Shown here: piece after piece, positions 22,524 to 24,664 of the stretch | How the letters are laid out: every line of letters starts with the position of its first letter | How positions within the stretch are numbered: position 1 is the first letter of the stretch | From: an uncultured Hyphomicrobiales bacterium | Lineage (GTDB): Bacteria; Pseudomonadota; Alphaproteobacteria; Rhizobiales; Xanthobacteraceae | DNA: 34,199 nucleotides | Reading direction: 5' to 3' | Assembly: GCA_903891395.1 (NCBI GenBank) | Contig: CAITEM010000009.1 | Location: forward strand, 1-34,199 | Program-made: the position numbers and the translations under genes | The notes under the pieces: generated by a model | Seen by the model: only the letters and a program-made list of their open reading frames with translations | The model's database searches: none | What the model was told of the DNA's origin: nothing

Positions 22524-22976
22524 TCAACCGCCGGTCGAGCCGAATCCGCCGTCGCCACGGCGTGTTTCGTCGAGTGAGGCGACCTCGGACAATGGAACTC
22601 GCGCGACGGCTGCAACCACCAACTGGGCAATTCGCATCCCGCGCGTGATGGTGACTGATTCGCTGCCCAGATTCACAAGCAGGACCTGGAGTTCGCCGCG
22701 ATAGTCGGCGTCGATCGTACCCGGCGCATTGAGCACCGTGAGGCCATGGCGCATGGCCAGACCCGAGCGTGGCCGCACCTGGCCTTCGGTGCCTTCGGGA
22801 AGCGCGATGGCGAGGCCGGTCGGCACCAAAGCGCGCATGCCCGGCGCGATGACGAGCGGCTGATCGGCCGGCACCGCCGCCATTAGATCGAGCCCCGCGG
22901 CCAGCGCGCTTTGATAGGAGGGCAGCGGCAAATCCTGGCCGTGTGCCAGCCGCATGACGCGGACGCCGTTGGTCAT
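22524..22976 (-). CDS. dut: dUTP diphosphatase
   Basis: [42 protein letters not shown]. Confidence 0.98.
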
Positions 22977-23105: not shown

Positions 23106-24512
23106 TCATTTATCCGCGATTTCCGCCGCAATGCGCGCGACCAGCATCGCGGCGACGTCCTGTTTGCTCTGCGGCGGCCAGGGCTCGATGCCTTCGGCCG
23201 TGACGAGCTGGATCGTGTTGCTGTCGCCGCCCATGATTCCGGTCTGCGGCGAAACGTCATTGGCGAGAATCCAGTCGCAGCCTTTGCGCGCGAGCTTGTC
23301 TTTGGCATTGGCGGCGACGTTCTCCGTCTCCGCGGCAAAGCCGATCACCAGCTTCGGCCTTTTCGATTTGCGATGTGAGATGGTCGACAGGATGTCGGGG
23401 TTCTCCGTCAGCAAGAGATCGGGTGTTGCCTGGCCGGCCTTCTTCTTGATTTTCTGCTCGCCGGCATTGGCGACGCGCCAGTCCGCGACGGCCGCGGCGA
23501 AGATTGCGATATCGACCGGCAGCGTGCGCTCGACCGCTTCCAGCATCTCGCGCGCGGTCTCGACTTTGATCAATTTTATGCCCGTGGGATCGGGCAAATT
23601 CACCGGTCCGCTGATCAGCGTCACATCGGCGCCGGCAGCCGCCGCAGCCATTGCGATCGCGTTGCCCTGCTTGCCGGACGAGCGGTTGGCGATGTAGCGC
23701 ACTGGGTCGATCGGCTCGTGGGTGGGGCCGGACGTGATCAACATGCGTTTACCGGCGAGCGGCTTGTCGGCGCTCGCAGCGAGAAGTTTCTCCGCCGCCG
23801 CCGCGATCTCCAGCGGTTCCGCCATGCGGCCGGTACCGCGCTCGCCGGATTCCGCCTTCTCGCCTTCGTTGGGGCCGATGGTGAGGACGCCGTCGGCGGC
23901 AAGCTGCGCAAGATTGCGCTGCGTCGCTTTGTTGAACCACATCAGCGGATTCATCGCCGGCGCCAGAAGAATCTTCGCGTGCGTCGCCAGCAGCGCGGCG
24001 GTGGCGAGATCATTGGCGTGGCCGTTCGCCATCTTCGCCATCAGATCGGCGGTCGCGGGCGCGACGACGACGAGATCGGTCTCGCGCGCGAGACGGATAT
24101 GACCGACGTCGAACTCGCCGGCGGGATCGAACAGATCGGTAAACACCTTTTCGCCGGCCAGCGCGCCGGCCGCGAGCGGCGTGACAAAATGTTCGGCGGC
24201 CTTGGTCAGGACGCAACGCACGGCGATGCCGCGTTCCTTCAAGCGCCGGATCAGGTCGAGCGATTTGTAGGCGGCGATGCCGCCGCCGATGATCAGCAGC
24301 ACGCGCTTGGTGTCCGGCGCCGCGGCCGCGCGGCCTGCGGATTTCGGCGCCGGCGGCTCGAACGGTCCCGGCACGTCGGTTCCGCTCTCGTCCGCCGCGG
24401 CACGCAGGATGGTGCGCACTTCGTCTTCAACCGAGCGCCCTGAGCGCGCGGCCCGAAGCCGCAGCAGCTTCTTCAACCGGTCATCAAGCTGCCGTATCGT
24501 GAGAGACGCCAT
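23106..24512 (-). CDS. coaBC: Bifunctional PPC decarboxylase / PPC synthetase with an extra N-terminal FitA-like ribbon-helix-helix domain
   Basis: GGGIAAYK, GHIRL, APATAD, PAMN, TSGPTHEPIDPVRYIANRSSGKQG, AAVAD, GFAAET, ANDV. Residues 1-40 (MASLTIRQLDD...LRLRAARSGRSVEDEVRTIL) are RHH-like; AGAGGA ribosome-binding site 7 nt before the ATG. Confidence 0.95.
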   Translation of the reverse strand: MASLTIRQLDDRLKKLLRLRAARSGRSVEDEVRTILRAAADESGTDVPGPFEPPAPKSAGRAAAAPDTKRVLLIIGGGIAAYKSLDLIRRLKERGIAVRCVLTKAAEHFVTPLAAGALAGEKVFTDLFDPAGEFDVGHIRLARETDLVVVAPATADLMAKMANGHANDLATAALLATHAKILLAPAMNPLMWFNKATQRNLAQLAADGVLTIGPNEGEKAESGERGTGRMAEPLEIAAAAEKLLAASADKPLAGKRMLITSGPTHEPIDPVRYIANRSSGKQGNAIAMAAAAAGADVTLISGPVNLPDPTGIKLIKVETAREMLEAVERTLPVDIAIFAAAVADWRVANAGEQKIKKKAGQATPDLLLTENPDILSTISHRKSKRPKLVIGFAAETENVAANAKDKLARKGCDWILANDVSPQTGIMGGDSNTIQLVTAEGIEPWPPQSKQDVAAMLVARIAAEIADK

Positions 24513-24536
24513 AGTAAAATCCTCTATGTCTTGAAT

Positions 24537-24568
24537 AAGTTAAGCCAATACTGATTGCAATGCAATCA
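24537..24568 (-). promoter_or_regulatory. Putative coaBC promoter overlapped by a perfect palindromic operator
   Basis: Minus strand TTGCAT-N17-TAACTT (24565-24537); the palindrome TGATTGCA-A-TGCAATCA (24552-24568) covers the -35 box. Confidence 0.65.
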
Positions 24569-24608
24569 ACGCACTCAATCGGCCCTGAGATTCCGTTTTA
24601 CGGCCGGC

Positions 24609-24664
24609 TTGACGAGCGTCGCCATGCTCTGTATTTAACCAATGAGTTATTTAACTGATTGGTT
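24609..24664 (+). promoter_or_regulatory. Promoter and operator of the ArsR-SRPBCC operon
   Basis: TTGACG-N17-TATTTA followed by AACCAATGAGTTA-TT-TAACTGATTGGTT (13 bp inverted repeat, 1 mismatch, 24637-24664). Confidence 0.7.

Follow-up and report, generated by a model that had tools for sequence, protein, structure and literature searches.

The stretch of DNA analyzed here, referred to as the window, comprises 34,199 nt of a contig (CAITEM010000009.1, assembly GCA_903891395.1) from an uncultured Hyphomicrobiales bacterium of the family Xanthobacteraceae. On its minus strand, positions 23106..24512 form a single open reading frame of 468 aa that joins a FitA-like ribbon-helix-helix (RHH) domain to CoaBC. 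The RHH domain (aa 2–40, 24393..24509) scores 53.8 bits against the Pfam family PF22513 (FitA-like_RHH, cut-off 27), covers model positions 1–39 of 39 and has S3-L-T5-I-R7 as its recognition strand. It is followed by a Pro/Ala linker (aa 41–67, 24312..24392), a CoaC (PPC decarboxylase) domain (aa 69–238, 23799..24308; PF02441, Flavoprotein) and a CoaB (PPC synthetase) domain (aa 252–436, 23205..23759; PF04127, DFP). The match to TIGR00521 (coaBC) spans aa 68–461 and, at 398.4 bits, lies well above the equivalog cut-off of 219.7. CoaC enzymes have an active site made up of a His and a PxMNxxM motif; here, GHIRL at residue 137 and PAMNPLMW at residue 185 are both present. The fusion gene is the sole CoaC/CoaB match in the assembly, which is 75% complete, and the fused RHH is the sole PF22513 match. 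For aa 1–45, the closest solved sequence is FitA of Neisseria gonorrhoeae (2H1O/2BSQ, E 0.009). The initial annotation had described a FitA-type N-terminal pattern joined in frame to a complete CoaBC, and both Pfam and TIGR scores bear this out. It had also remarked that no PIN toxin gene is adjacent, which is correct: the RHH runs in frame into CoaC, and no PIN gene was found next to the fusion in the window or in the flanks of 76 close loci. A search for plasmid matches to the N-terminal 68 aa found none.

In the AlphaFold monomer model, the N-terminal region has two helices (residues 6–24 and 28–43, pLDDT about 72–78) and no strand, and the linker is predicted to be disordered (pLDDT < 50 for aa 44–66). 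The best Foldseek match of the model is M. smegmatis CoaBC (6TGV). Both domains of CoaBC/Dfp are complete in the fusion, which differs from these enzymes by the added RHH and linker and by a substrate clamp lacking the cysteine that is kept in other Rhizobiales families. The RHH is under purifying selection and is constrained equally to the enzyme domains, with dN/dS values of 0.090 for the RHH, 0.089 for CoaC and 0.093 for CoaB versus 0.55 for the linker (22 disjoint pairs). Linker length is variable among relatives (21–51 aa). Across 121 fused proteins, S3 is conserved in 96%, T5 in 98% and R7 in 100%.

Upstream of the gene, a palindrome of the form TGATTGCA-N-TGCAATCA can be read directly at 24552..24568. 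It consists of two 8-bp boxes in inverted orientation with a 9-bp period and is a putative operator. Further upstream, a degenerate third box, TGAGTGCG, lies in the same 9-bp phase at 24570..24577 (minus strand) and is perfect in many relatives. A predicted −35 element, TTGCAT (24560..24565, minus strand), lies within the putative operator and is separated by 17 nt from a predicted −10 element, TAACTT (24537..24542, minus strand), so that the palindrome overlaps the −35 of a TTGCAT-N17-TAACTT promoter exactly as had been described. A generic scan for sigma-70 promoters found 0 and so missed this one. Counting from the palindrome across 66 loci, position 10 is enriched in T (0.58), position 11 in A (0.70) and position 15 in T (0.58), and TAACTT falls exactly there. 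In the window, a divergent ArsR gene lies upstream of the fusion, which confines the promoter to the short stretch between the two. The start codon of the RHH is preceded at a distance of 7 nt by AGAGGA (24520..24525, minus strand), the good ribosome-binding site noted earlier. In the 3.36-Mb, 75%-complete genome, the palindrome is single-copy at ≤ 2 mismatches. Perfect 8-1-8 palindromes of whatever sequence number 180 in the same genome, 12 of them AT-rich, so the meaning of this one rests on its conservation and not on its rarity. As only one box pair occurs in the genome, there appears to be no wider regulon.

Start sites mapped in Bradyrhizobium diazoefficiens USDA 110 bear on the position of the promoter. 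For bll0759, an RHH-bearing CoaBC of 483 aa, the sites given in PMC4842269 comprise a main one at 813828, 19–20 nt before the RHH ATG, and a weak one at 813900, and include no internal sense start; the RpoD boxes predicted there are at −58..−51 and −36..−29. When overlaid on four like-spaced Bradyrhizobium loci, on the assumption that the USDA 110 spacing is identical, these RpoD-box positions fall inside palindromes 1 and 2 in three loci and are one base off in the fourth. Table S3 of PMC4842269 also has an antisense start site at 813802 (+), inside the first codons of bll0759; transcription from there would run through both the coaBC leader and the operator. Proteomics of bll0759 reported 12 peptides, every one of them beyond residue 100, so the RHH is outside the coverage. 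An ATG within 12 codons of CoaC occurs in 8 of 120 fused genes, whereas 34 of 37 unfused genes have a Met there. This difference points to translation from the RHH start, as the initial annotation had supposed.

The architecture itself is not new, as RefSeq already names the extension "SbtC-like" (in full, "bifunctional SbtC-like/...") and notes an N-terminal domain in alphaproteobacteria; that entry is an annotation and does not include a DNA-binding role, an operator, an origin or a distribution. In the open-access literature we found no functional study of an RHH-CoaBC or "SbtC-like" protein and no binding or expression experiment on the fusion. A search with residues 1–45 against proteins of 257–819 aa gave 1618 matches; of the 120 listed, 119 carry RHH and CoaC and one the RHH label only. 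In an evenly spread draw of 130 Xanthobacteraceae genomes, 127 had a match and 71 of these aligned from residue 1–2; two more proved to be fused, which brings the fused genomes to at least 73 of 127. Outside the family, an order-wide draw yielded one alignment from residue 1 among 132 matched genomes, and a denser draw from one family (f26) yielded 15 of 60 from residue 1–2. Among the loci fetched, RHH fusions were present in 11 of 30 from f26 and 7 of 20 from a further family (f17). The RHH-CoaBC fusion is confirmed as real and is widespread; about 40% of the window's family is unfused and most other families are without any fusion. The gene for dUTPase, dut (22524..22976, minus strand), is likely co-transcribed with the fusion and follows it in 77 of 78 loci. 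Membership of rrf2 in the proposed coaBC-dut-rrf2 unit is not supported, as rrf2 occurs in the flank of 51 loci.

We then compared fused and unfused genes with respect to the boxes. From the 127 Xanthobacteraceae matches, 80 were taken across genera, of which 78 were parsed together and two were read separately. Within the window's family, 36 of the 41 loci that are fused have the palindrome (≤ 2 mismatches, within 300 nt), as does 1 of the 37 that are unfused; in these counts, kin are not independent. The other five fused loci have a degenerate palindrome only (3–4 mismatches). At least two 8-bp boxes, most commonly spaced by 9 bp, occur within 160 nt at 35 of 41 fused loci, at none of 45 unfused loci (37 from the family and 8 from other families) and in 2 of 8200 shuffles. 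Within 90 nt of the start, 73 of 80 close loci have the palindrome at ≤ 2 mismatches, often with three boxes, and two have none. With a looser box, at least one is found at 18 of 18 fused loci of f26 and f17 and at 0 of 13 plain loci. Metagenomes give the same picture: among 80 listed of at least 120 matches to the triple site, 76 lead to RHH-CoaBC, one to an RHH+PIN pair and two to an RHH cut by a contig end, and one is too short. The co-occurrence that the initial annotation had proposed as a test is therefore observed. The boxes are conserved whereas their flanking bases are free to vary, and in four relatives both arms have co-varied to TGATAGCA/TGCTATCA. Boxes with TGAC are found at 7 of the 8 loci (three families) in which residue 3 is Thr and at 13 of the 129 in which it is Ser, an association seen post hoc and with 4 of its 8 loci in one clade. 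For the co-occurrence of palindrome and fusion, just three independent pairs rest on well-supported branches; each of them goes the predicted way (p 0.25).

Some copies of the palindrome lie elsewhere. In three genomes (G092, G095 and G149), 1–5 copies per genome form the core of a longer repeated hairpin with CCGATC...GATCGG arms and have no adjoining RHH gene; this hairpin is possibly a REP-like element. We rejected a regulon as an explanation for these extra palindromes, since they are cores of longer repeats without an adjoining RHH gene. Genome G138 has a perfect copy (L229, position 1621) some 4.2 kb ahead of its fused coaBC in the upstream direction, also without an adjoining RHH gene. 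At the end of a contig in a genome that already has a fusion (L251, G115:C27:1-185), there is a second, near-identical RHH start and operator.

A close parallel to this arrangement is FitAB of N. gonorrhoeae, a system of the VapBC type, with which the fusion shares the PF22513 RHH, 8-bp boxes in its own promoter region and, as judged from sequence, a candidate inverted-repeat operator. The Neisseria FitA half-site is related in sequence to the boxes of the fusion, and matching boxes precede free RHH+PIN pairs. In contrast to FitAB, the fusion lacks the PIN toxin, and the toxin-binding tail is replaced by the variable Pro/Ala linker (free RHH relatives have a C-terminal tail of about 40 aa). 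With both toxin and tail absent, we rejected a toxin–antitoxin system as a description of the fusion.

Several relatives retain what appear to be intermediates. In G124, the order is ubiB, triple operator, an 81-aa RHH antitoxin, a 139-aa PIN toxin, coaBC (after a gap of 1 nt) and dut. RHH+PIN also precedes coaBC in G064 and G117, the latter without a recognizable palindrome despite this arrangement, and in G057 an RHH with an eroded PIN does so. G039 has a free RHH+PIN pair with the same triple site. In f26 and f17, a separate RHH lies before coaBC at 14 of 50 loci; every one of these modules has one or more boxes upstream of it, and at 9 of the 14 the start of a PIN could be recognized by pattern. 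At one locus (L254, genome G258), two tandem RHH genes are followed by a PIN toxin and coaBC, with the boxes at the first, short RHH gene. The surviving intermediates suggest that the interval between ubiB and coaBC once contained an autoregulated RHH+PIN module, that the promoter of the module came to drive coaBC, and that deletion of the antitoxin tail and the toxin then joined the RHH to CoaC. The claim that an antitoxin RHH was captured together with its operator is thus supported, at the level of sequence, by ubiB-operator-RHH-PIN-coaBC relatives and by the co-occurrence of palindrome and fusion.

The fusion probably has one origin within the window's family and further ones in two other families; the initial annotation had mentioned neither the surviving RHH+PIN precursors nor the repeated fusions. 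On the CoaBC core tree, one clade for the fusions of the window's family was not rejected (p-AU 0.61), whereas AU tests on quick trees of 61 rows rejected a single clade for all RHH fusions (1.6e-7) and for the f26 fusions (0.001). Loss or transfer could also produce a pattern without a single clade; we favor separate origins because G167, which is fused, and G258, which carries the toxin, are sister genomes of the same genus, and because the adjacent PINs belong to different groups. In the PIN tree, the PIN adjacent to coaBC in f26 falls in another group, and the three from the window's family are without resolution; the RHH tree, with 39 columns, was too short to separate origins. Heads of other kinds are found in f17. 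Three loci (L422, L423 and L424) have a Cro/C1 HTH (PF01381) fused to CoaBC, with 11 homologues, and in L422 and L423 a double TGGATATATCCA-type palindrome lies before the start of HTH-CoaBC. A third domain of about 60 aa, for which neither Pfam nor PHROGs gave a family, precedes CoaBC in frame at L433 and L439 and frameshifted at L435 and L436, and has its own conserved TTCCTAT/ATAGGAA repeat. At L436, an RHH+PIN pair is located just upstream of this domain.

Taken from sequence comparison, these data make it likely that the fused CoaBC represses coaBC-dut from its own promoter, with feedback by protein level. The RHH head would bind the array of 8-bp boxes over its own promoter, and coaBC-dut would be repressed as the level of the enzyme rises. 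Each RHH dimer may bind one box, with the consensus TG[A/C]WW[G/T]CA, and two to four boxes in 9-bp phase would overlie the −35 and, in some cases, the −10 as well. In FitAB, antitoxin dimers are linked to one another by a dimer of the toxin and so bind the operator cooperatively, as described in PMC3378870, PMC3920265 and PMC5086665. The boxes of the fusion differ from those described for FitAB (PMC3378870) in their 9-bp period, and the enzyme oligomer would take over the bridging done there by the PIN toxin dimer. The CoaBC oligomer would hold several RHH dimers on flexible linkers; a dodecamer is reported in PMC7794376, and for mycobacterial CoaBC only. Our default model is negative feedback by protein level that needs no metabolite signal.

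Why the fusion persists is a separate question, and an answer compatible with autorepression, to which we give slightly less than an even chance, is that it has been kept without being a gain. The site before coaBC would often receive small self-regulated modules, and the essential gene would come to depend on the promoter and start codon of the module; loss of the toxin would then be easy, and loss of the repressor would lead to overexpression. The separate RHH genes before coaBC at 14 of the 50 f26 and f17 loci, with differing PIN types, agree with such a history, as do the sister genomes G167 and G258 and the absence of any fusion from roughly 40% of the window's family and from most other families. 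However, the long persistence of the fusion in many genera, with strong selection acting on it, fits a real benefit too, and repeated capture of unrelated domains also fits a benefit of constant CoaBC/Dut levels.

The initial annotation went further than autorepression and suggested that the enzyme senses the state of CoA, CTP or flavin. The precedent is PutA, for which PMC5293562 describes, in the trifunctional proteins of E. coli and Salmonella, a bifunctional flavoenzyme that carries an RHH at its N-terminus and acts as the repressor of its own gene. The fusion resembles it in architecture, with a predicted DNA-binding domain on an enzyme and both parts equally constrained. It differs in that its enzyme is biosynthetic and essential, its RHH is of the antitoxin type and toxin-bearing precursors survive. 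Switching of PutA by proline and flavin redox state is demonstrated (PMC5293562), whereas the fusion is known from sequence. By analogy, CoA thioesters, CTP, cysteine or the redox state of FMN might switch DNA binding in addition to autorepression, which we regard as unlikely; that such a switch would act through a changed oligomer or location is similarly doubtful. PMC7794376 reports that CoA thioesters inhibit mycobacterial CoaBC and that CoA and acyl-CoAs inhibit M. tuberculosis CoaB, flavin reduction is what switches PutA (PMC5293562), and the capture of three types of DNA-binding domain at the N-terminus of CoaBC would be in keeping with a regulatory input. Yet a linker of 21–51 aa with a dN/dS of 0.55 and predicted disorder would be a poor conduit for allostery, and the single box pair speaks against a wider regulon. 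The claim of metabolite sensing is unsupported.

Two further readings deny the fused RHH a role at the boxes. It might be kept as a module for dimerization or stability, with the palindrome as a leftover, and an RHH fused to monomeric PutA does force dimerization (PMC5293562); this is very unlikely here, as the boxes are conserved amid freely varying flanks, their changes are symmetrical, and conservation of S3, T5 and R7 on the surface is 96–100%. It is extremely unlikely, and largely refuted, that the RHH is a passenger while a divergent ArsR or a free FitA-like antitoxin binds the boxes in trans: ArsR is the direct neighbor in the window and free FitA-like antitoxins use related boxes, but ArsR lies within 1 kb at only 19 of 76 loci with enough flank, 53 of the 57 loci without ArsR keep the palindrome, none of the 41 fused family loci has an ArsR match, ArsR has a tandem site of its own, and of the 20 well-assembled fused genomes (among 35 searched, with the best 150 matches in some), 14 have no listed PF22513 match other than the fused RHH. 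The possibility raised earlier, that the neighboring ArsR binds the palindrome instead, is contradicted by the same ArsR-free loci. In the region 24609–24663 (plus strand), the ArsR gene has its own likely promoter, TTGACG-N17-TATTTA, and a tandem imperfect repeat at 24632–24663; ArsR is the first of three or four small genes that form an insertion between ubiB and coaBC.

The CoaC domain has a peculiarity of its own. The substrate clamp of E. coli CoaC contains a catalytic cysteine, C158, and 1MVN, the C175S trapped-intermediate structure, is among the Foldseek matches of the model. In the window, the clamp (aa 213–230, 23823..23876, minus strand) is free of cysteine, and every parsed protein of the window's family, whether fused or unfused, reads A-E-x-x-E there, without cysteine. 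Many other Rhizobiales families also have a cysteine-free clamp, and several others keep A-C-G-E (loci L082–L181 and L247–L271). The missing cysteine is a lineage trait that is not tied to the fusion. Since this is the sole CoaC in the assembly, another residue may substitute for the cysteine, and perhaps the Glu does its job. A cysteine-free clamp across much of the order is an enzymology question separate from that of the fusion. Residue 219 in the clamp (23856–23858, minus strand) is Lys in the window and Met in the otherwise identical protein P0001 and in nearly all relatives; K219 is either a private variant or an assembly error.

Autorepression by the fused CoaBC predicts transcriptional control of an essential step of CoA synthesis in Bradyrhizobium and its relatives, with a defined operator. 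We know of no transcription factor for coaBC and found none in the open-access literature. A broader proposal, which we consider improbable as a whole, is that Rhizobiales CoaBC has repeatedly become its own transcription factor through heads captured together with their operators from modules of toxin-antitoxin and phage-like kinds (the RHH several times, the Cro/C1 HTH and the third domain), with the oligomer reading CoA or CTP status to set coaBC-dut transcription; if true, the CoA pathway would have a regulator that senses metabolites and whose entire evolutionary history can still be traced in living genomes. Plain coaBC, coaBC with an intact RHH+PIN in front, coaBC with an eroded toxin and the fusion form a natural series for the birth of an enzyme-regulator, and the series is unusually complete, with independent repeats and unrelated domains doing likewise.
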